Assembly: GCA_003971905.1 (NCBI GenBank)
Contig: RSEE01000005.1
Coordinates: forward strand, 806,001-870,000
Direction of reading: 5' to 3'
From: Moniliella sp. 'wahieum'
Lineage: Eukaryota
DNA: 64,000 nucleotides
In this document: one piece after another, positions 6,150 through 64,000 of the stretch
Numbering within the stretch: the stretch's first letter is position 1
How the letters are laid out: each line of letters starts with the position of its first letter
The notes under the pieces: generated by a model
Told to the model about the DNA's origin: nothing
Databases searched by the model: none
The model's input: the letters and a program-made list of their open reading frames with translations, nothing else
Position numbers and translations under genes: made by a program

Positions 6150-7230
6150 ATCATTCTACCGAAGCCTCCCTCCCCCCCCGCCTCCGCGGTGGGTGATAAA
6201 CATGCCCCGGTTCAGTGGCCAGCATAGAGGCGGACTTAAGTGCTTGTGAATCGCGGTCCAAGATTTGGCCCATTGCAGAAATCTCGATCCTTGCCTCGGC
6301 CGAGGAGCCATAAAACGTGGGCGCGGGCGAGTGGTCGGATACGTACTTTCGGTAAGGTATACGACCTGTCGTTTGTAATATGGTAGCGTGCTCCGCCTGA
6401 TAGTGTACCACTACCGATGAGCACGTCCAGCGCTGTCTTCGGGTGATTTCCCCCATCGCGGTGTTCTCATGTACCTCCTTCGGTATGGGGCCTGCTGAGT
6501 TCCGAGAGTAGCGCAGCGTGTGGTCCACCTCCATCCCTGATCCTCAGATTGCTCCAGGTCCCATAACGCGGTAGTCAGGCACATTTTTGTCTTCCTCCAA
6601 TGCCTCGTACCATCCTTCTCCTCCACAATCAGCTTGTGTGGATGTGGGTGTTAGGGATGAAGCGAACGAGCTGGAAAATGGGCTCCCGCACTGCTTCATG
6701 CAACACACCAAACTTGGACTGGGTGCGGGTGCAAGCCATGAGATGTGTCAAGCACTGCACATACTGACCGTGGAGCGGCACAGCGTGGGAGCTGGAGACC
6801 AATCTCAACCTGCTTGTCGGCAGGCTGGAGGCACGGGCGGTGATGGAATGAGGAGAGCCAAAAGTGTGAGTGAGCGGGTGCTGTGCTCGACACATTGCGA
6901 CCATCGGCATCTCGTCAAGCTCTTTCTGGAGAAGATTTTGTCAGCTCTTCCTCCCATCTCTCCGGCAGCGCGGGTGTTGTTGCTTCGTAAATGCGGTCGC
7001 CGTCGGTGTGCTGCTTCCGATCGCGCAACATAAAGGGCTGCCGCATCCTCCCATGCGGAGAGGCACGCTCAAGAGATGCGAAAAGATCGTCCTTTGTACC
7101 TTTTGGGGGTCTCCACATTGCCCTTGTTGATCCGTCCGAACTCCTTGCAGAGAAGGCATTAATCTCGGCCTGCGCATGAATCTCATCCCGTACAGCAGCG
7201 TCGCCTCCACCTCCTTTGTCCACCTTCACT
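6150..7230 (-). mobile_element. Degenerate C-terminal ORF of an RLE-type (CRE/Cnl1/MoTeR-like) non-LTR retrotransposon
   Basis: Across broken frames: FWLSS...LQPADKQVEIGLQL, then C...HLMAC...LHEAVREPI (Zn-knuckle plus RHD-like motif), then PDYRVMGPGA..GSGMEVDHT (PD...D nuclease motif), then RKY. Clearly homologous to 11274-11810. Confidence 0.7.
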
Positions 7231-8019: not shown

Positions 8020-10019
8020 TATATAGATGCAGTCCCCCACAACCCGACCAATGTCTATTTGTGCACATAACTGCAATTGCAAAAGCCATCTGAACCAGGG
8101 GGACTTGGCATGTGTCAGGGACAGGGTAGCGTCTTACATCTGAGTCTCAGATCTAACACGTGAAATTGAAATGTCGCTGGACGCAAGGAAAAAACCAGGG
8201 GAGACGTCAGCCGCCGTCGCGTGCCCCCAGTACAGTCGGCACGGGGGCACACTATGCTTTCTGTCCCCCCGCTTGCACCTATCCATGTTCCCATCTCCCT
8301 CGCACCCTCGGGCTATCTCTATAGCATCTGGGGGTCGCAACCCATGCAGAGTTTGTGCCATGCAGGCCGTTAAGACGGCCCCCAGTTGGTTCCAGTGGCT
8401 GTAGGCCAGGATCCAGCTAGAGGGTAGGTATATCTTTTTGCGAAGGAGATATATTAGGAAGATGCCTTAGCTGTGTGCACGCTGTCACACGAGCCGAGAA
8501 GGCCCCAGAGGTCGCATCGATCAGGCCCTGACCAACCTCATCGACCACGGACGGCCTCACAGGACTCATGATGCATGATGCATGACCCCATCCCTCCATC
8601 GCCGAGACTTCGCACCAACATCTTCTAGCACCTGTGCCATCCACTGTGCTGTGTGATATAACAGAGAGAGGCGTCGTGCCCACTGCGGTGCCGTGGGGGC
8701 GCCCTGTCTTCCCCAATACGCCGGTATACTTGTTTTTTACCTCCATACTACATTCTGCGGCGGCCGTCGGTGGTGACCCGGCGACGCTTGAAGACGCAGT
8801 TCCGGCATTTCCTCAACTATATTCAAATTGAGGGTAAATTCTTTCATCTTATTTGGGGGGGGGGGGCAGTTTGGTGCCGACACCAACAACCCTGAATTCA
8901 ATCTCGAACAGATAGATGAGTTTGGAAGCGTAATATCTCGGCATGCATTTCCCCGGCCTTTCGCGGCCAGTATATACAGTTTAGGACCTAGGGGCTTGGG
9001 GCCAAAGTCTCAATTTGGGGCTTGGCTTGGCAGTCGTTGACAGGCACACTAACCTTTGCACTCTCGGCATACGTGGAAAAAATGCGGACACTCGTTTACC
9101 CACGTGACGCAAAATATCGGGTAACCGTCGGTAAAAAGAGAGCTTTTGTCTTCTGTGTCGTCGATCACTTTTAATGATTCTGTTGTGCTATACTTGTTGC
9201 AGCCGGAAGAGGGTGCTGCTGGGCTTCTCCATTAGGAAACAGCGCCCAAGATGGCATTGTTGGCATGGGTGCCTGATCCCTGAGCCGAGCCCTGAGCCGA
9301 TTGAGCATACGAGCATGCAGTGTGGCTGAACCTCCTTGAGTGTGATGATGGTTTGGCTATATACTGCAGCTACTGCCCTCTCTACTGAACCACGGAAAAA
9401 AGAAATGAGGGGGGGTGGAGAAGTAGTTTAACATCTAAAACAAGCACAGATTCCATGCCGTAGCATGCCGCTTCTGCCGGCCGGATGGTAAAGGTGTACC
9501 TGTGTACACATATTTGGGGTGGCCGGTGGAGCCGAGAAGCAGGCCGAAGCCCCGAATCGCAGATCTTGGCCCTGAATCTATTGCGTCTCTCTCCCCTTGT
9601 GCCGTCCACACAAATCCCCCATTATTTTCACGGAGGGTGCAGTGCCTGAGAACCCCCCCCCCCCCCCCCCCTTCGCCTCGTCAACAAAGAAGGGTGGGAC
9701 CTGAGGCTCAGGCCTGAGGCCCCTGAGGTCTGCGAGGAGCTGGCTGACTCACTGAAACACTGTTCTCAACCCTCAGTCCTCTAGTGCTTTCATACGGCCA
9801 AGCAAAGTCTCCTACGGAAAGCCATTCGCATGTTGGACACTTCTTGTGTTGTATTGGGGGAAGCAAACATCCTTCCCCATTGGGCAACCTTGGGCAACCC
9901 ATTTACGGCAACTAGACGGAAGAAATATAACCCGTAATATCGGGTCGTCCAGAGCCTTTCCCCCCCACATACCACTACTCTCCGTCTCTTCAAGACTTCT
10001 TTTTTCTTCTTCTTCACCA

Positions 10020-10928: not shown

Positions 10929-11953
10929 CTAGAAGACCACCGGGCCTACGGCCCGGTCAGCTGGGGCTTCGCCCCAGCTTGGTGCTTGGTGCTTGCTTGC
11001 CACCTTAGCCACCGTTCCCCGTCGCCACCGTCGCCATCGGTCCACCGTTCCACGCTGGAGGAATTTCATCACCCATGTGCATCCGCCTGGCTGCGGCTGA
11101 CTGGAACGTGCCGGGTGGCATGCTGACGCTAGAATTTACGTAAAGGGAAAAACGACTGCCGCAAAATTATGAAGTAGAGATTGTTGCTGGTGGCTGGGAC
11201 GGGTGGCTGCGCCACCCGGTGGCTGGCGTGAGGCTTATGTAAAAAGTGCACAGGCGTTTCCCATCGCTATATTGTTTGGTGCGTTGCATGACGCAGTGCG
11301 GGAGCCCATTCTCCAGCTCCTACGCTCCATCCCCGACACCCATGTCCGCAACGAACCTATGGTGGAGGACGAGGATGGGAGAAGACAGAGGACGCAGCGC
11401 ACCGACTACCGCGTGATGGGGCCCGGAGCACTCGGCGGATCAGGAATGGAGGTGGACCACACGCTGCGCGACACGGGATCACTGGCGCAGAGCGCGTTCC
11501 GGAGGGTGGTGCATGAGAGCACCGCAACCCCCTTGGAACGCCGGGAGAAGGAGCTGCTTCGGATGCTTGAACAAGCAGAATGCGACAAGAACGCCAAGTA
11601 CCAGGGACGCACTCAAGAGCCGTTTTTCCCCCTGGTTTTGACGACGAGGATACTACGGCACCAAGACAGCGGGCAAGTTGTTCGCGCATTGGAAGGAGTT
11701 GGCTACTAAGTCTCAGTGGAAATGGTTCCTCGCTCGGATGTCAACCACGTTCCTCCGTGTCCACACGCGCTTCCTAGGGTACGGGACCGGATGGCGTGAG
11801 CCGGAGGGTCCTGATATCCTGGCGATCCCCCTGGTCCCTTGACCCTGGTGGCGCCCCCAAGTAACCCCCGCAAGATGAACGATTAGGTTTAGACGTAGCG
11901 TTCCCCCTGTCCCAGCCTTAAGCTCTGTCAATGAAATGGACGTGCTCTAGGGA
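10929..11953 (-). mobile_element. Non-autonomous Helitron (copy 1) interrupted by a retroelement fragment
   Basis: On the minus strand: A|TCcctagag at the 5' end, and GC hairpins (ctggggcgaagccccag; ccgggccgtaggcccgg) shortly before CTAG|T at the 3' end. Termini match the uninterrupted copy at 56970-57206. Confidence 0.8.
11274..11944 (+). mobile_element. RLE-type non-LTR retrotransposon 3' fragment (endonuclease domain plus 3' UTR; copy B), nested in the Helitron
   Basis: LHDAVREPI...RNEP...RTDYRV...EVDHT...DKNAKY...FFPLVLTT, then after a frameshift WKELATKSQWKWFLARMSTTFLRVH. This is the typical motif order of a restriction-like endonuclease. Confidence 0.8.
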
Positions 11954-16672: not shown

Positions 16673-16874
16673 GTTGGGCTGCGGGGAGACCGATGAGGGC
16701 AGTGGGAAGACCGCTGGCGGCGAATAAGCGATGCGCGGGGAGGCTGGCGTGCACAACAGGACAGGTGTGGCGGGGGTCGCGTGGGGAGCGCAGACGAACC
16801 TGGGCGCTGAAATTTCAAAACCCACGGGAGGGAGGGCGAGCGAAAAGCGGGGGCGACCGCATCTGCCCGCCGGC

Positions 16875-28289: not shown

Positions 28290-30290
28290 GGAGCTGTGAT
28301 GCATGATGCATGGCGCGCTGATGCACTGATGCTGCTGATGTGACGTACGGGTTTGACGTTCGACGAACTTGAAGCTTGAAGTTCTTGAATCTTGAAGAGA
28401 CTCCTTTTTCCCGATGATTGATGAGGTCGATGAGGTCGATAAGGCCTAAGGCATAAGGCCTAAGAAGTTTCTCATATCGAATTAATCATTCAATTGGAGA
28501 TGGCGTTTACAGGGATGTGGAGGACTGGTGGAAGCCTCGGACAATAAAATCAACGTCAGGCCGGTGACATGTCGTAAGGTGAAGCGATGAAGCGGTGAAG
28601 CTTGAAGAATTCAAGTCAAGGACGAGAGCCAAGACGCAGGCGCCTGCCTTCTGCCTCATTTGTTCTATTGATCTCAGACCTCGATCTCACTAGGTCACTA
28701 GTCACTAGTCACTAGCACTAGCACTAGCACCAGTCACCGCACCAGTGACATGTGACGTGTGACGGTCATAGATCATCGATCACCAATCATCGATCACTCG
28801 ATCACTAGCTTCACTCGAGTGTCCTACAGGAAGTTTTGCCACACATCATGCGCATTATACATCATGCATCCCAGCCCCGTGTCTTCAAGCTTCACGCGTC
28901 ACGCGTCACGTTCAGAAACCTCGGGGCTGCAAGGGGCCGCAACAGCGCTGTATCAGTGCATCATGCATCAGAGCATCAGCGCTCAGCGCGCTCATCGATC
29001 ATCATCATCATCATGCATCATACATCATGTCCCAGATATCAGGTGGCAGAGCTGCAGCAAACTTCTGCTTGCTTCTGCCCGCGCGTTCGACCAGCTAATG
29101 AAACAGAGCGTAGCGTACTTGAGTACCTCGGAACACGGAATTATCTCGATTTTCTCGATTATCTTGAGTACCTAGTACCAAGGAATGATGCATGCTGCAT
29201 GATGCATGATGATCGATTAATCGATTAATCATTAATCAATTAATCATCGATCATCGATCATCGCCCCCTTAGCCTTATCGATTACCGATATCGATTAATG
29301 TCGATCAGGACCTGTGCCTCCGCGCTAGTGAATGCAAGTGACTAGTGACTAGTGACTAGTGATGGATCCCGACATCGCTGACTAGTGACTATTCAGTTGA
29401 ATATTGACTACAAGGTACTGGTGATAGCACTGGGGTAGCTCCTAGTTAGATTAGTGTCCCTGTGACTGCACGCGAGCCTTCTTGTTGCCCGACGGGGGTT
29501 TGCAGCGTTTTGCATCCATCTGGGAAACAGATTCTGAAATGCAGCCAATCCTCATCTCAGGACCTCAGATCCCTCAGACTGGCTCGGTCCATTATGCATT
29601 CGATTAACGTTTAACGTTTAAAATTTAACGTACTTAACGTTCAACTAAGTACATGCAGGTACCCGCTGCAGAGCTGCAATACCGAAACCACCCTATATAA
29701 AAGTGACACCTGTCACATGCCAGCTGAAGCGCTCACGAGCTGGACCCTACTGGCCCTGACCAGCACGCCCCCAAGGAGGACGCGTCTAGCGTGACGCGTT
29801 CTGAATTTGGGATGTTGTTTACCAGGAGGCACGCGTCGTCCCATGGATTTCCGGTAAGGCCGGTAACCGGTAACCCTTAACCGGTACCTGGTACCCAGTT
29901 CTAGTCAACGTTCAATGGTCCACGTTCCACAGGCTATGCGTCTTCCATGCTCAACTATTTATTAGCCTGTTCGCGTCACTGCATGTCACATGTTACTAGC
30001 CACAAGTCACTAGTCGCTATAGTCACGATAGTCACTTTGTTCCCTTTGTAACGTTTTCAACGTCCAAAAATGTCCAACACCATTAATCGTGTTCACGTGT
30101 TCAACGTTCCCGTTGTTTGCCTAGTTACTTGTTAAACGTTAAACGTTACTTCGTGAAGAGCGTGAAGCTTGAAGCTTGAAGCTTGAAGCTTGCAGGGCTT
30201 CAATAAGCGCGTGCCCTCAAAAGCTTCAATGTATTCAGTGAATGGGGTCTCAATAGTCCCTTTTTTGACTATAGTCACCGTGTAGTCAAC
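28290..30290. repeat. Dense field of 7-bp TNA plus 4-bp-palindrome micro-arrays
   Basis: Examples: (TCActag)n at 28695, (TGActag)n at 29339-29362, (TCAtcga)n at 29244, (TGAagct)n at 30163-30190, (TAAacgt)n at 30133. Confidence 0.9.
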
Positions 30291-32909: not shown

Positions 32910-35535
32910 GGTGACCCCGGTGACCGGTGACCGGTGAGCCGACTGGTCCACTGCGCCTAGCGGCTGAAATCAGGCATCTGAGATCACCAATCACCGATCT
33001 CGATCACTGAGATGGAGATCTGACATGCTGAGACTGACGACCCTGTCCCGCCAGGTATCCAATATCTAACCGCCCATCCAAGAGAATGGCTTTCATTCCA
33101 GTGGGGCGCAGCGGGCCGCATGCCTCTAGGAGAAGCATCTTTTCTGGTTTCGTGTCGCTCTAGGGCCTAGGTTTGCCACCCGCCTCTGCTCCCCTCTGGG
33201 ATCTAGCGCCTAGCCCCAACCGTCCGCGTCACGTCACAGTGCCAGTGACCGGTCACCCCGTCACGGTGACCGATGATCGATGTCGTTGAGCGTGGGAAGT
33301 GGGACATGTAACATGTAATCGGTGACCCTCTGAGAGTCTGACGGGGTCCTGACTCAGTCTGAGTCCCTCAGGCATGAAGCTTGAAGCTTGAAGTGCCTCT
33401 GAGGCCACCGCTCCAGGCCTGAGCGCGCCTGAGCCTGACAGTCTGATGCGTGCGCCTGAGGGCCTGAGGCCGCCTGATCTGATCGATCTGAAGCTTGAAG
33501 CAAACTTAGTTGGCAAAGCTTGAAGCTCCTGAACGGGACTAGGAACTACCCGTCACGCGTCAAGGTCCCCCTCAGATCAGACCTCCAGCTCAGGCTCAGA
33601 TAACTTGGTCACATCCCCAGTATCCTTCCCTTTTTCCTACCCATGCTCGATGCCAAGGGAGTACCGATAATGGCAGAGGTGGCCACAAAAGCACGGCTGA
33701 CTGCCCAGCTGCCCACCACAGAATAGAATTGTGTTGCCTACCTACCAGCTACGTTAACGTACGTTAACCCGTTCTACGCAGTAGTACATACTGATCCGTT
33801 TACTCCTGCCGACTTTTGTCGAATATCAACGGTTCAACCGATGGAGGATCTGCCAGCACCGAACTACACCCGATTTTGAAGCCTCGAGCTTGAAGCTTGA
33901 AAAGCCAGTTAAACGTAACCCTTAACGTGACACGCTGAACGTTAAACGTTAATTAATGAGGCCTAAGGCCTATTAAGGCGTAGGCCTAAGCTGATGTGGA
34001 TGTTAAAAAACGTTAATGCTTAGAAGGCCACACCGTTCCACCACCGTTCCGTCTTCATCGCCACCTTCATTAGCCCCCATCCCACCGTCGCCACCGTAGC
34101 CACCGTTGCCCCGTGCACCACTGTTAGGATTGGATTTAGCTTAAGGTTTATCCATCATCACCGTGGAGCGTCCTGGCAGCGCCGGCGGCGCCGCTGTGCA
34201 CGTGCTATTGCAAACGACCTCCCTGTCTTATAGATGGCGAACACATTGTTTGGGCCCTGGAAAGAATTGACCACTGAGTCTCAATATTCTCAATGGAGAC
34301 GGTTCAACTTGAACGTTCACCGGTCACCGTTCAGATGTCTGCCACGTTCATTCGTATCCACGCGCGCTATACTCTCAGATCTCAGGTATGAAAATGGATG
34401 GCGGGTGTCAGAGGGTCCTGTTCGATGATATACTGGTCCTGGGTTCCTAAACGGATTTGGCGCCAACAAGCGACACGGGATGAACAAGACGCAGTGTTTC
34501 TTTGTCCAAGCCTTACATGGACGCAGTGTTTCTTTGTCCAAGCCTTACAGTTACAACTCAAGAGCCTAAGCTCTACTGTCAATGATATGGCTGCGCCTGG
34601 CAGGAACCCTCTGAAAACAAAGCAATTCTATGAAATACACCGATTTGCTTAGCGCTTAATGCTGACATGTTGGTAGGCAGAGGTTTTATTACGGCCCGTT
34701 GAGACCAACTTCGCTCCGCTTTTTAGCTTCATCGCCACCACAATGCCCACCGCCGTCGCCCTGAAACACGTATGTGGCGATGCAGCGCTAAGCTGAGGTC
34801 TGAGGCTGGCTCAACGTAGGTTCATGCATGCATGATCAGTGCTAGTCCACTACGTGCCCCATGGGTTTCGTACGAGTCTCTTGCCCAGGCGGTCACTGAA
34901 TATCAGCCACGGCCTGCCACGGCGCGTCCTGGCTCACCGTGACGCGTGACGCATAATGGATATGCAACCGGTGATTGGTAAACGGGAGCCGGGGTACCCT
35001 GTACCCAGAAACCAGAAACCTTTGACGAATAGGAGAAGCGGAACTTACCCCCAAACCCCCGCCAGCCATCCCGCCCCGCTGTTCTTTGTTGGACGTTGGA
35101 CCTATTAGCTGTCCCGCTTAGCGCTTAGCCTGACAGCGACGCGCGCCCTGTGTCTTTGTTCAACGTTCAACGTGTTCAACTGACGTGTCGATCTGTTTGA
35201 GGAGATGGGGTCGGTCAGCGCTCAGCCCTGAGCGCTGACTCAGCCCTCCAACCGGGCACACGTCGTTTTGACGTGTTGAAGCTGCGGATGCCGAACATTG
35301 GGCACATATTCAGCTCGCAGACGGTTGTTTTCCCAGACGGTTGTCTAGCGGTGGACACATTGGTCGGCCGGGGGACTGTCGAATACATTGTATCTGAAAC
35401 ACGCTCTCCGTCTTCACGTGCATCACGTGTGACGGTGACAAGTCACATGTCACTGTCACGGTGGACGCGTAACGCGTAACGCGTGATGCCCAGAGGAGGT
35501 GGGTTACTACTAGTTACTGGTTACTAGTTACTCCG
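32910..35535. repeat. Second dense field of TNA/palindrome micro-arrays, upstream of the cyclin
   Basis: (TGAccgg)n at 32921-32937, (TGAagct)n near 33375 and 33890, taaggcctaa near 33965, (TAAcgcg)n near 35465, ttactagtta near 35521. Confidence 0.85.
34230..34592 (+). mobile_element. RLE retrotransposon 3' fragment (copy C) carrying palindromic insertions
   Basis: LFGPWKELTTESQ aligns with LFAHWKELATKSQ of copy B. It ends in ctgtcaatgatatgg like the other copies. Confidence 0.72.
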
Positions 35536-38013
35536 GTTTCTCGTCCCGGCACTGCCCCGACCCCACCGTCACTCCCTGCTTGGTGTGCCAGTGTGCCGTG
35601 CACGCAAACTCTCCGTTTGGTGGCAACGGGATGCTTCAGGTGTTGTCTGGCGCTGTTCGCTACAGGGTTATATGCTTCCAGCTGCTCTGCCTGCTATACC
35701 TTGCTATCCACCGCTGATGCATCACATGCATCACATCCCACATTCTACTTGGCACGGTGCCAAGAGCGTGTAACGTGTGTTTACCACAGAAGCCTCTGTC
35801 GGCCTATACCAGCCGGCGCTTCCTGTACCTCGTTCAACATTCACATGTTCACAGTTCCATACGAGAAGATAGACTTCAAGGCCGTAATGTGTTCGTCTCT
35901 CGCGAGTATGAAAACTTTGGCTTCTTTTTCTTGAGAGCTCATTCCATTGCAAAAGGGCCTACTAACACCTCTCGGCTCTGTCGAAGGAGGACCTTCATTT
36001 GCCCCCCCGCGTAAGGCTGAGAGGTGGCGCATGGCCACTAAGCGGGACGTCTACCGTCGCACACAGTCCGGACGTGCCTGGTCCTGCAATTTTGCCAAAA
36101 TCTTACCTGATGAGCGTGCTGAGCGCGGCATCCCTTCTCTCGTAATATATCGCTAGTGTTTAACGAGCCTTGTCTCGTGCCTGGCTCGCAGCGACATCAT
36201 CAGCCCTACTGGCCGTGGCATTTTATGATCAAGGGTCCTGGTTGGTAGTCTCTCTTGAGGCCAAGGTGTTGGTTCTGATGTTTTCTCACTTCGCTTTCCA
36301 TTTTGTTCTTTTGCGGGCAGACCCCGTGACGCCTGGCATGTAGATGTCCCTGTAAGCGTAACTGGCTGGCCAAGAGACCACCCTAATCACCATCATTAGT
36401 GCGATGGTGTCACCATCAAGAGGCATTATCAAAGCTCCAAGTCTCATTGTAAAAGCCCCCACCTGATGAGGAAATGTGAGGATCGAGCGTGCATCCCAAA
36501 GGGAACATATATAAAGTGTAAAAGGGATTTGAGCGACTCCCTTCGTTCGTCGTTCGCTTCGGCAGGTGGGTAGACAACTCAAGCCCCACTTACGCACACT
36601 GCATGGTCTTCCTTCTCTCTCCTTCCTGCCACGGATGACATCGATGGACAAATGGATGCTACCTCACCAGCAAGCATGTCATTTGCCATTTTTGAAAAAT
36701 ATCCGCACTGGCTGAGATGGTTCTCGCTCGATGATCATGGTTGGTCGCTCCAGCAGGTTCTCAGAGCTAGGCTCATCATTTTCACGCCCCATTTCACGGC
36801 AACTGATGATTCCAAGGCGACTGGAGGGAAAGACTGTAGTCAGTGAATGCGGATTATGGTTCAAGACGTACTGCCGACGAAGGCAACTATAATGGACCGA
36901 AAACCCAATGTGAGTGTTTCTGTCACGGTCTCTCTTATTAGTAAACGTTTGTTGAGGGAGCGAGAGCCTCCCTGGTTGGTGGGCTGTTCTGCCGCTGTCC
37001 TCACTATAGGCATCTCCGTGAGGGTCTCTGCCACGCCCTGCCATCATCGCCACCAACTTAGGGAACGTCACAAAATAATGTCTCCCCGTGATATTACAGT
37101 GGTCTCACGGCCACATGATGCACACACTTTCAATCCCCTGTGGGACGACGTCTCGTGGCCTTGATTGCTTATTGAACGGTGCGTTTTCCCGCGTTGCGGT
37201 CGTGTGGGTGTTCGAGAAAGAGTCATCATCGTCATCAGCGACCTATACACTCTTCCGCGGGATCCGGCCGGCAGGGATGACAGCGACGGGCGCCTGTTTT
37301 TCAACAAGATCCATGGTGGCTGGCTGGGCAATGGAAGACGAGTTGCTAGCGCAACGGCTTTGAACATGTGGCGCCAGGGGCAGCGGTTCAAACATTCAAC
37401 TTCCATACAGGGCACATGGCACAGCGCGTTTGCACGTTCAACGTTCAACTTGAACGTTCAATATTCAAGCTCAGCCGCGGCTTGGCACGGCAGGCACTGC
37501 TCGGCAGAGGGATGGAGTTGTGGCAGTTGTGGCCCCGGGGCCGAGGGAAGCCAGCGAAGCATACGCACTGGCGCCCTGCACAGACGCACCGCGTGCTGAG
37601 TACCTGGGCTGGCGCCCCGCGCAATCCAAACACCCGACACTGCCCCCGGGCGGCGGAGCACACTCCAAGCAGCGCTGGCTGGTTCCTTGCAGCCGCGCGC
37701 TGGAGCGCTGCATGATGCATGACTGCATGACACTGGCCACAGGCGGCGGCATAACTTGGCGACGTGTGACATGTGGCTGCCAGGACCAGTGACAGCGGCC
37801 GATGAGGTGAGCTCACCAGTGATCCCCTGCGCGGAGGCCGATCGGGCATAAAAACTTTTAGTGCTCCGCCGGAGCAAGCGCAGCCGACGCAGCACAGACA
37901 CACCACGACACCCCAGGACAACCCGAGTGCTTGCTTCTCGGCCACCGCCACCGCCACCGCCGCCGCCGCCGCCACCCCCCCTCGCTGCCTCCGCCACATT
38001 CTGCCCGGGCAGC

Positions 38014-54508: not shown

Positions 54509-54922
54509 CGATGATAATGTCCTTTTTCTTTTCTCTGTTGGTTTTGGTCGTAACGCGCACGTGTTGCCAAGGCTGCTGTTTTGCCTCTCTTTTTTCTATC
54601 CATTGCCCTTCTGTTTTGCTGTCACTGCTGCTCTTTTTTGTGTTCGTGCTGCCCCTCCCCCCCCCCCCCTCCCTTGCGATGTGCTCCCTCTGTCACCACC
54701 CTCACACTCGTTCCCGCTGTACGCGCTGTATGATTGATTGGCTCGTCCCAAATCTCTTCTCGAACCACTTACTATAAAGCAGCGTAATTTGTGCAGTTGG
54801 GGTACATTCTCTCTTACTAGCATCTGATAAGTTAGCACCCTGCTGAGTCTTCCGAGGCTGATGGGTCCGAAGCACCACGGGCGTCTGCAGGCCGGTAGGC
54901 TGGGGGGGGGGGGGGGTACGGG

Positions 54923-56969: not shown

Positions 56970-57206
56970 CGAGGAGGACCACCGGGCCTACGGCCCAGTC
57001 GGCTGGGGCTTCGCCCCAGCTTGGTGCTGCGTCGCCACCTTAGCCACCGTAGCCACCGTTCCACCGGCCACCGTTCCACGCTGGAAAGACGAAATAATAT
57101 CACCGATTGTTGCTGGTGGCTGGGACGGGTGGCTGCGCCACCCGGTGGCTGACGTGAGGCTTATGTAAAAAGTGCACAGGCGTTTCCCAGCTATATTCTC
57201 TAGGGA
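56970..57206 (-). mobile_element. Non-autonomous Helitron (copy 2, uninterrupted, ~237 bp)
   Basis: A|TCcctagagaatatag 5' end, twin GC hairpins, and a CTCG|T 3' end. Near-identical blocks to 10929-11273. Confidence 0.78.
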
Positions 57207-58614
57207 TATACAGACAGGATCTATAAAGGATGGACAACACAACGAAGGGGGAAGGAATCGGGATCAGCGGCGCTCAGATAGGAACACACACTAAGTAGCA
57301 GGGAAAGGTTCCCAAACTCAACCAGGAACAGGAACTGCCAAAAATGATGTGGATGATGTATGATGAGCTTCTGCAACACGCATGATCCTGCCCCGCCTAT
57401 ATTACAGGCTCTCCATTGGAAAATTGGGAGTAGCACGACTCCTATAGGAGCCTGGTAGCCTCGGCTAGAATTCACAGTGAGTGCATATGGTTCGACGGAC
57501 TGAACCCACTCAACATCTGAAACCCCCCAACTGCCGCGATGAAGCCGGTGATGACAACACTTTTTTGACCACATCCGTGATCGATGATCTATGACGTGTG
57601 ACCACATGTGGCCAGGCTGCTTCGCCCCAATCCAAGGTTCCAAGCCCTTGAGAGCCTATCTTAGAGAGACATAAGGCCTAAGGCCCCTAAGGCCGCCCCC
57701 AATGTGGGGAAACGCGTATGAACGAAGGGGGGTCTATATACTACCAGTGGCACAGATATATAGGGTCAACAGCGGTTACCGGTTAGCAAGTCGGGCCGGT
57801 AAAACTAACCATGGTGTCTTCCTCGTGAACCGGTGTTGAGAGCCTTTCTGTTGAGAAACAGAGGTATACCATAACCACATCCGCGTGCGCTCAGTCGTAC
57901 GTACACATAAAATATAGCTGCGTCTATTCTGTACTATCTGGGCGACGCGTCACCGAACCCTCACCACACTCTTCCCCACAATTCAATTTCCATATAAGTG
58001 CCCCCTCATCCTCCAGCCGCTTCTATTGTACGTGCCAGTAACATTCTCCCTTAATATAGTCGTATTACTATGCGCCCCACTCGTCATCGATTTTGGCTGC
58101 TGTGTGCCTTCGGCTCCGGCCTGGAGACTAATAAGCGCTCAGCTCAGGTCACCCGGTCACAGGAGGGCGGGGCAACCGCGGGCTGAGCGGCTGAGCTACG
58201 CTGGGGGCCCAACATCCACAACCATAGAGACAACAATAATTCGCCAACCTTTCTCTTCCCCAATCAGCTGACTCCTCAATTGAATTGTGGCTTGCTTGGC
58301 CAGCAAGACGGCCACAGCTAGCTACACTAACAATGGATTAATGACGGCGAGAGGCTTGAAGCTTGAAGCTTGACGATTGTGAGGGAGTGACAACGCGGGG
58401 TAAAGCTAGAAAGACTGTGGTATAGCCGGCCAACAAGTCGGGTTTAAAGTGGACTGTCGCATTCCCCCCCCTACCCCCTTCTCCCCACGCATGTGCCTAC
58501 ATACGCACTCACACATGCTCTGCGACAACTGCAAAAGTCTCTGGGACAACAGCAAATTGCCACCGTTGCCCCTGGACGCTTTTGCAGGGCAGCCTGGCGT
58601 GCGTGGGTTCCTAG

Positions 58615-61082: not shown

Positions 61083-61194
61083 GCGCCACTCGATCATTGC
61101 ATTGTCCGCTGGTGTTGTCACGGGCGGGCGCCGCCAGGGGGCCCGCCCTGGGTTCTTTTTGGGTACAATCCCTTAGGCGACGGTAGGTCGACTC

Positions 61195-63365: not shown

Positions 63366-64000
63366 ATCGAGGATGCTGACTGTTGGCTGACCCTGTTTTG
63401 GTAACCCCCTCCTGTCTAAGCCCCACCGGACTGGCATATAGATGTTGACAGAGCGAAGCAGAGACGAAGCTGCTAGAATGGTTCAGCTGCAAAGCAGTCT
63501 TCAGACAAGGCGTGAAGGTAATGTGGTGGGCCATAAGTCTTCAGGTGTGACGGGCGAGCGCTGGCTGGCGGGCCAGCGGAGCTTACACCCCAGGGGCGGG
63601 CCCCCTGGCGGCGCCCGCCCATGACACAATGGACCGTCCGGGGTTCCCAAGGCAGGTCCTTAAGGTTCGTCGTTATCTAGGGCTGGACCCGTTCAAGCCT
63701 GCGCAAGTCGTATGCCGTTTTTCACCGTTTCCGTTTTTCCCCCTGTCGGGCAGACGTGCCCTCCCGTTTTTCACCCCAGTCCTTGAGCGCATCCTCCGTT
63801 TTCTGTCCGAGATGCCAAGGCGTTCTTTCCGTTTCCCGTTTCCCACTCTGTTGCGACGATGCCCTGGTTGGCCTTTCCCAATCGTTGCACCCCGATGGTT
63901 GCCCCGGCTTCCGATGGTTCTGTTGCTTGGCCAGCTTCTTGCCCTCGTCGCCGCTTCAAATTCGAATGGCTTTGAAACTTTATTCTCGGTTCGTTTATTT

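Follow-up and report, generated by a model that had tools for sequence, protein, structure and literature searches.

A 64,000-nucleotide stretch of contig RSEE01000005.1 (assembly GCA_003971905.1, positions 806,001–870,000) from Moniliella sp. 'wahieum' carries many short arrays in which TNA triplets, written T.A below, alternate with 4 bp palindromes at a period of 7 bp. The whole stretch is termed the window, and, control loci apart, all counts refer to the assembled sequence of this one 64-kb window. The DNA is fungal and nuclear, has a G+C content of ~57%, and its genes are broken into short exons; the host is a basidiomycete. Pfam matches in the window include a sugar transporter, TBP (in three pieces), ribosomal protein L1, a fungal-specific transcription factor domain, a cyclin gene on the minus strand, SKN1/KRE6 (also in three pieces) and a zinc alcohol dehydrogenase. 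The best named relatives of the dehydrogenase exon belong to the Ustilaginomycotina, i.e. Violaceomyces (62%) and Kalmanozyma, Moesziomyces and Tilletiaria (~60%), and no named relative is closer than Violaceomyces. This one protein suggests a rough placement of the host in or near that group.

Two fields of arrays stand out, and neither the fields nor the arrays are assigned a strand. Field 1, at positions 28290–30290, has 31 arrays with 40 matches to the pattern T.A-[4 bp palindrome]-T.A. Field 2 spans 32917–35800 and is upstream of the cyclin gene; it has 19 arrays with 25 matches within 33000–35800, to which a TGACCGG array of three copies at 32917–32937 is added. A small cluster at 37434–37722 consists of two copies of TCAACGT, the mixed array TGA-ACGT-TCA-ATAT-TCA, and two copies of TGATGCA. 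Outside the fields, TGAAGCT is repeated 2.9 times at 58354–58373, and other scattered exact arrays are found at positions 2399, 4753, 8567, 18684, 21365, 21481 and 57672. The arrays are short (10–31 bp) and are depleted in coding sequence, as only one of 84 is inside open reading frame (ORF) segments supported by Pfam, where 13.6 are expected if arrays were distributed uniformly.

The window contains other repeats. Within field 2, an exact 32 bp tandem duplication (34488–34549, 1.9 copies) is unrelated to the T.A pattern. Arrays of 9-mers (GCCACCGT[A/C] and CCACCGTAG) at 10999–11051, 34082–34114 and 57030–57079 constitute a second dispersed family of short repeats, which also does not follow the T.A-palindrome pattern. 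Homopolymers are present as C19 at 9653–9671, an impure C22 at 54652–54673 and G15 at 54902–54916.

Triplet anchors and palindromic spacers

The pattern T.A-[4 bp palindrome]-T.A is found 104 times in the window. Markov simulations of order 1–3 yield 6.8–7.9 matches, and exact dinucleotide shuffles in 500 bp blocks (n = 200) yield a mean of 8.6 (standard deviation 3.1, maximum 19). The block-wise shuffles predict 0.62 matches for 28290–30290, where 40 are observed, and 0.42 for 33000–35800, where 25 are observed. By subtraction, the 39 matches outside both fields compare with about 7.6 in the shuffles.

The palindromic-spacer effect belongs to the T.A anchor alone. Spacers are palindromic in 104 of 256 T.A pairs (41%), compared with 1–8% for each of the other 15 anchors (253/5139 when pooled), and the ratio of observed to simulated palindromic counts for these anchors is 0.15 to 1.6. 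Fifteen of the 16 possible palindromic tetramers are used as spacers, TATA alone being missing. The two T.A triplets of a match have the identical N in 83 of the 104 cases, as direct duplication would predict.

The period and the length of the palindrome are also well defined. Exact arrays with at least two copies number 38 at period 6, 46 at period 7 and 18 at period 8. Of those with period 7, 34 consist of T.A units with a 4 bp palindrome and 12 are unrelated; none has an A.T, C.G or G.C anchor. Base identity at lag 7 in field 1 is 0.37, whereas it is about 0.25 at neighbouring lags. Palindromes of 4 bp (104 matches against 7.0 expected) dominate, those of 6 bp are fewer (9 against 1.6), and those of 2 bp are near background (37 against 27.9).

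The pattern had been noticed in an initial annotation of this DNA, which listed 14 palindromic tetramers as spacers. All 14 are found at the positions it gave, and AATT, seen at 16808 and 29619, brings the number to 15. The excess over shuffled sequence and the distinction between TNA and other anchor triplets, which that annotation proposed as checks, both come out in its favour within the window. On two points it overstated the case. It described the palindromic spacers as obligate, yet 152 of the 256 T.A pairs have non-palindromic spacers, which form the background, and it tied the pattern largely to one field, yet 64 of the 104 matches are outside 28290–30290.

A control set was formed from 26 fungal metagenome loci, fetched with the SKN1 exon, which total about 234 kb and are at most 66% identical. 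None is close enough for an array-by-array comparison, and the set serves as a negative control only. These loci show no effect: palindromic spacers number 42 of 653 (6.4%) for the T.A anchor and 838 of 14343 (5.8%) for other anchors. The pattern is thus not shared by fungi at large, nor does it stem from the way of counting; it is lineage-limited.

Flanking bases and the structure of single events

The matches were chained into 84 arrays, and the dinucleotide that borders each array on either side was compared with the palindrome halves. This provides evidence beyond the earlier observation. In 68 of the 84 arrays, half of the palindrome is identical to the outer flank dinucleotide: 29 arrays have this match only at the left end, 27 only at the right end and 12 at both ends, where the chance level is 1/16 per side. 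The 16 arrays with no flank match correspond roughly to the chance expectation plus some decayed events. Among control arrays with any of the other 15 anchors, 70 of 249 have a flank match (34 right, 28 left, 8 both) and 179 have none.

The sequence rule can be written as abTNAcd changing to abTNAcd-d'c'-TNAcd, or, in the mirror form, to abTNA-b'a'-abTNAcd. Each event thereby copies five bases directly and two bases in inverted form. Many events are minimal structures of 12 nt, in which a 5-nt direct repeat surrounds a 2-nt inverted copy, and not 14-nt tandem duplications. The direct repeat, either TNAcd or abTNA, encloses the inverted 2 nt in the manner of two target-duplication copies at a junction. 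A minimal left-type event is seen at 2105–2116 (tg TCA CA TG TCA), where the direct repeat TGTCA is found around CA, which copies the left-flank tg in inverted form; this is not a 7 bp tandem duplication.

These structures also emerge from scans that do not presuppose the anchor. An unbiased scan for a 5-mer, two nucleotides and the same 5-mer, with the spacer inverted, found 67 and 72 cases where 4.4 and 4.8 are expected. Of these, 46 and 49 have T.A where the rule predicts it, and the rest are mostly other registers of the same arrays. When the lengths of direct repeat and inverted spacer were varied, the survey peaked at period 7, with 118–128 cases compared with 8–9 expected.

TNA is part of the target. 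The pattern [Necd][d'c'e'][Necd] requires e to be A, which is found in 49 cases against two, one and one for the other bases; a T precedes the first N in 46 of 49 cores and an A follows the last N in 49 of 62. Of the 43 targets that could be reconstructed, 35 have C or G as the N of the triplet, and beyond the triplet there is no strong preference. By manual count, b equals c' in 6 of 27 right-only arrays. This is the chance level, and the ancestral target therefore need not be palindromic; it is the event that makes the palindrome. Since the left TNA copy is followed by cd, the duplicated segment extends at least two bases past TNA, and a symmetric target would be 7 bp. The near equality of left-type and right-type events (29 and 27) is consistent with a symmetric joining model.

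Individual arrays illustrate the rule. The longest exact array (30163–30192) has 4.3 copies of TGAAGCT and is right-type, with ag as the flank. The TGACTAG array of 3.7 copies at 29337–29362 is left-type and is the inverted counterpart of the TCACTAG array of three copies at 28694–28715. The mixed array at 28885–28908 reads ct-TCA-AGCT-TCA-CGCG-TCA-CGCG-TCA-cg; its AG+CT palindrome matches the left flank ct and its two CG+CG palindromes match the right flank cg. Such an array would be expected if ctTCAcg had undergone one event of the left type and two of the right type.

Arrays with other periods are present in field 1. These have period 9 (GATGAGGTC and ATTATCTCG), period 6 (CACTAG) and period 8 (ATCGATTA), and are located at 28420–28444, 29140–29164, 28696–28730 and 29212–29245. 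They may have come from the same process acting imprecisely, with units lost or two palindromes kept. Also, an identical 10 bp perfect palindrome, TGAACGTTCA, is found at 34310–34319 and at 37451–37460, each time preceded by tcaact. It is among the 10 matches in which the two N bases are complementary, as though an inverted copy had passed through TNA.

Origin of the arrays

The sequence itself shows one rule with a fixed period, a specific triplet, an inverted dinucleotide taken from the flank, left/right symmetry and depletion in coding sequence. The reading we favour, and to which we give an even chance, is that the arrays are repair scars of a 7-base staggered cut symmetric around TNA, with the flanks sealed as hairpins. 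The likeliest agent would be a cut-and-paste transposon with a 7 bp target site duplication (TSD).

From the sequence we infer the following course of events. Insertion would duplicate abTNAcd, and at excision both flanks would be closed as covalent hairpins. A host nuclease would then nick the hairpin two bases off the tip, which would produce self-complementary 3' overhangs of four bases, cdd'c' at one end and b'a'ab at the other. If end joining retained one overhang and dropped the other, the site would become abTNA-cdd'c'-TNAcd or abTNA-b'a'ab-TNAcd, longer by 7 bp. The 7-mer around each TNA would now be palindromic, and further rounds would add identical units and lead to arrays.

A perfect inverted copy of two flank bases with no loop is the signature of a hairpin end nicked off-centre, as in P nucleotides. 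The cited passages on Artemis:DNA-PKcs place the main hairpin nick 2 nt to the 3' side of the tip, with the 4-nt overhang dominant (PMC2175297), and the dominance of 4 bp palindromes in the window parallels this. Hairpins on the flanks are known for hAT, Transib, RAG1 and the Mutator-like element (MULE) Muta1, to judge from the relevant portion of PMC5499845. Fungal DNA transposons with 7 bp TSDs also exist, and the survey sections used here name Kyakuja in Agaricomycotina and hAT7 in Pucciniales (PMC12730594).

Much of this had been anticipated. The initial annotation argued for an enzyme-defined process in place of ordinary slippage, and the single rule followed by 34 of the 46 exact period-7 arrays, together with the minimal 5+2+5 events, sustains this view. 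Its suggestion that the palindromes are of hairpin-type origin agrees with the inverted flank dinucleotide (68/84 arrays, compared with 70/249 on control anchors), and its odd-length target centred on TNA agrees with a geometry that needs two bases past TNA, hence 7 bp if symmetric. The claim that each repair regenerates a palindromic target also holds, in that every event regenerates a palindromic 7-mer that can be struck again. Of its model of transposase cycles, the sequence supports the hairpin and the odd target, and a mobile agent of the hAT or Mutator kind is a candidate only. The canonical hAT target is an 8 bp duplication with an nTnnnnAn preference; we reject it here, as the period is 7, and the A.T anchors that it predicts at period 7 number one where 6.6 are expected.

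Several observations weigh against an excised transposon with a symmetric 7 bp target. Pfam detects no transposase domain (E ≤ 1e-5) in the 118 searched of the 179 ORFs of at least 110 aa, and a permissive re-scan (E ≤ 0.1) of 24 of these 118 ORFs shows no transposase. A scan of the window for terminal inverted repeats (TIRs) with 7 bp TSDs returned five weak candidates, each of which is either an array matching itself or a stretch of low complexity. The window shows no filled site, and the mobile agent is hypothetical. With 40 inferred events within 2 kb, the scars are also very dense for products of excision. In addition, an asymmetric 5 bp duplication (TNAcd) plus two P nucleotides yields the identical sequence, and the nine cases with 6 bp palindromes need a duplication longer than a strict 7 bp.

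Two pairs of inverted sequences should be mentioned in connection with TIRs. Segments at 6508–6713 and 11274–11472 are inverted relative to each other and share ~85% identity across some 250 bp; the ORFs that contain them (6154–6543, minus strand, and 11173–11706, plus strand) match no Pfam family. We reject these segments as TIRs, since they have the appearance of a diverged gene pair in inverted orientation. The other pair is a G+C-rich inverted repeat of 33 nt at 61116–61148 and 63594–63626, 97% complementary, which brackets ~2.4 kb of ORFs with no Pfam match. Its arms start with TGTCA and end with TGACA, and examination of its ends showed no target duplication.

The missing transposon leads to an explanation in which the same chemistry takes place with no mobile element. 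A host or domesticated transposase-like nuclease, or an abortive transposase, would make hairpin-sealed, 7-nt-staggered breaks at TNA in open intergenic DNA, and the arrays would be the scars of repair. This accounts for every sequence feature used for the transposon reading, and it fits both the extreme local density and the finding of no transposon in 64 kb. Domesticated hAT and Mutator-like transposases make hairpin-capped breaks in yeast mating-type switching. However, ends cut with no element between them would simply anneal again or be rejoined by ligation, the direct duplication of 5–7 nt is most simply seen as the fill-in of a staggered integration, and no candidate gene is seen in the window. 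We consider a nuclease of this type unlikely.

Replication slippage promoted by hairpins is more doubtful still. The heptamers are near-self-complementary, with one N-N mismatch per unit, and might expand as CNG triplets do. Every T.A array with a 4 bp palindrome is quasi-palindromic by construction, arrays reach 4.3 copies, and period 7 exceeds periods 6 and 8; slippage may well alter the length of arrays once these are formed. Nevertheless, it requires a prior repeat, yet many of the events are minimal 5+2+5 structures. It also predicts all four symmetric anchors, whereas T.A is the anchor in 34 of 34 symmetric exact arrays and C.G, G.C and A.T in none, and it leaves the palindrome half copied from the flank unexplained. 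A slippage microsatellite of the ordinary kind, with an unconstrained unit and a prior repeat, is at variance with the 34 of 46 exact period-7 arrays that follow one rule.

Selection for cis-regulatory arrays has very little probability. The triplets would be TGA/TCA half-sites of a dimeric transcription factor, e.g. of the bZIP type, at a fixed spacing in promoters, and the predominance of C or G at N, the location of the fields on the flanks of the cyclin gene, and their non-coding nature are in keeping with this. But the 15 different palindromic spacers derive from local flanks, the arrays are not conserved as a single motif, and we know of no factor that requires just any palindrome between its half-sites. 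A sequencing or assembly artefact is equally improbable: the arrays are short, an artefact would not respect ORFs as these do, and to our knowledge no basecalling or assembly error yields TNA-anchored 7 bp insertions with flank-derived inverted dinucleotides.

Other models of duplication and repair were rejected on their predictions. In footprints of the Tc1/mariner type the junction bases come from the element termini and are constant per family; retained end bases of this kind do not agree with 15 palindromes that vary with the local flank. A 3 bp TNA duplication with P nucleotides would yield spacers derived from T and A. A symmetric 5 bp duplication predicts only spacers of the form xx'xx', but CGCG, GCGC, ATAT and TATA account for 16 of the 104 matches. 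Fold-back copying through TNA predicts complementary N bases, which are seen in 10 of 104.

Significance and relation to known systems

With some hesitation, and as something less than an even chance, we suggest that the arrays represent a lineage-specific mutational process not described before, in which a hairpin-forming transposase or nuclease acts at TNA and adds exactly 7 bp per hit by a fixed rule. If true, the process imprints its own cleavage geometry on the genome and, in making palindromes, builds ever better targets for itself. New intergenic DNA and heptamer microsatellites would then arise from nothing, and cycles of excision and repair could both seed and extend microsatellites. 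By the model, inserted sequence amounts to about 280 bp of the 2001 bp of field 1, and the cycles may thus have contributed about 14% of this 2-kb intergenic region.

The arrays would also be a dense natural record of the chemistry of one enzyme. The target triplet, the 7-nt stagger, the sealing of hairpins, the +2 nick and the selection of one overhang during joining would all be readable from the scars. The nnTNAnn duplications offer a direct handle for finding the responsible element in the genome, and the rule is a ready marker for ±7 bp polymorphism between strains.

Full-text searches, whose reach did not include Laurie et al. (2012) or a follow-up from 2013, returned no account of the rule of TNA plus 4 bp palindrome heptamers. 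The arrays would appear to be a previously undescribed form of transposon footprint or P-nucleotide scar; the chemistry of hairpin footprints itself is already known.

Among systems that resemble the arrays in part, PIF/Harbinger elements have a TWA duplication and a palindromic extended target, and their targets, too, are centred on a T-N-A-like triplet. Here N is mostly C or G (35/43 targets), not A or T. The PIF/Harbinger TSD is 3 bp in the survey sections used (PMC12730594), and we reject this superfamily as the source, for a 3 bp duplication cannot put cd between two TNAs. Microsatellites that form hairpins, such as the CNG triplets, are similar in that the unit is self-complementary except for the central N. 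They differ from the arrays, which have a strict T.A anchor, flank-derived palindromes and minimal events that arise de novo.

Kyakuja, of the KDZ superfamily, has termini of the form CA..TG. Kyakuja and hAT7 are reported, in the parts of PMC12730594 drawn on here, to have 7 bp TSDs, and they are found in the same phylum as the host; the proposed element may share this TSD length. The geometry fits a symmetric 7 bp duplication such as theirs, although an asymmetric one of 5 bp gives the identical sequence. In those parts of the survey they are known from Agaricomycotina and Pucciniales, whereas the window's exon relatives, by one protein, are Ustilaginomycotina. No KDZ or hAT domain was found in the 118 window ORFs searched with Pfam.

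The closest likeness in chemistry is with flank-hairpin footprints of hAT, Transib and MULE elements, and with the P-nucleotide joints of V(D)J recombination. Their junctions contain flank bases copied in short inverted form (PMC2175297, PMC5499845), and 4-nt palindromes dominate, with a +2 nick (PMC2175297), as far as the cited passages of the two papers extend. The transposon footprints also keep both copies of the target duplication. On the other hand, the duplication in the window measures 7 bp (or 5 bp) with TNA at its centre, while theirs is 8 bp with nTnnnnAn or 8–10 bp. Here a single rule accounts for 104 matches within 64 kb and has been repeated to form tandem arrays, and the process is known from its scars alone.

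The repeats of smut fungi provide a comparison nearer to the host. In the portions of PMC4081816 consulted, these repeats are short, dispersed and intergenic, are read as transposon footprints, and occur in a related fungal group. The core T.A-[4 bp palindrome]-T.A is 10 bp in length, which invites comparison with the '10-bp repeats' of U. maydis; the likeness is by description and not by sequence. The same process might be behind these unexplained short 'footprint' repeats, and the rule found in the window makes this a testable link to the 'TE footprints' (transposable element footprints) of related smut fungi.

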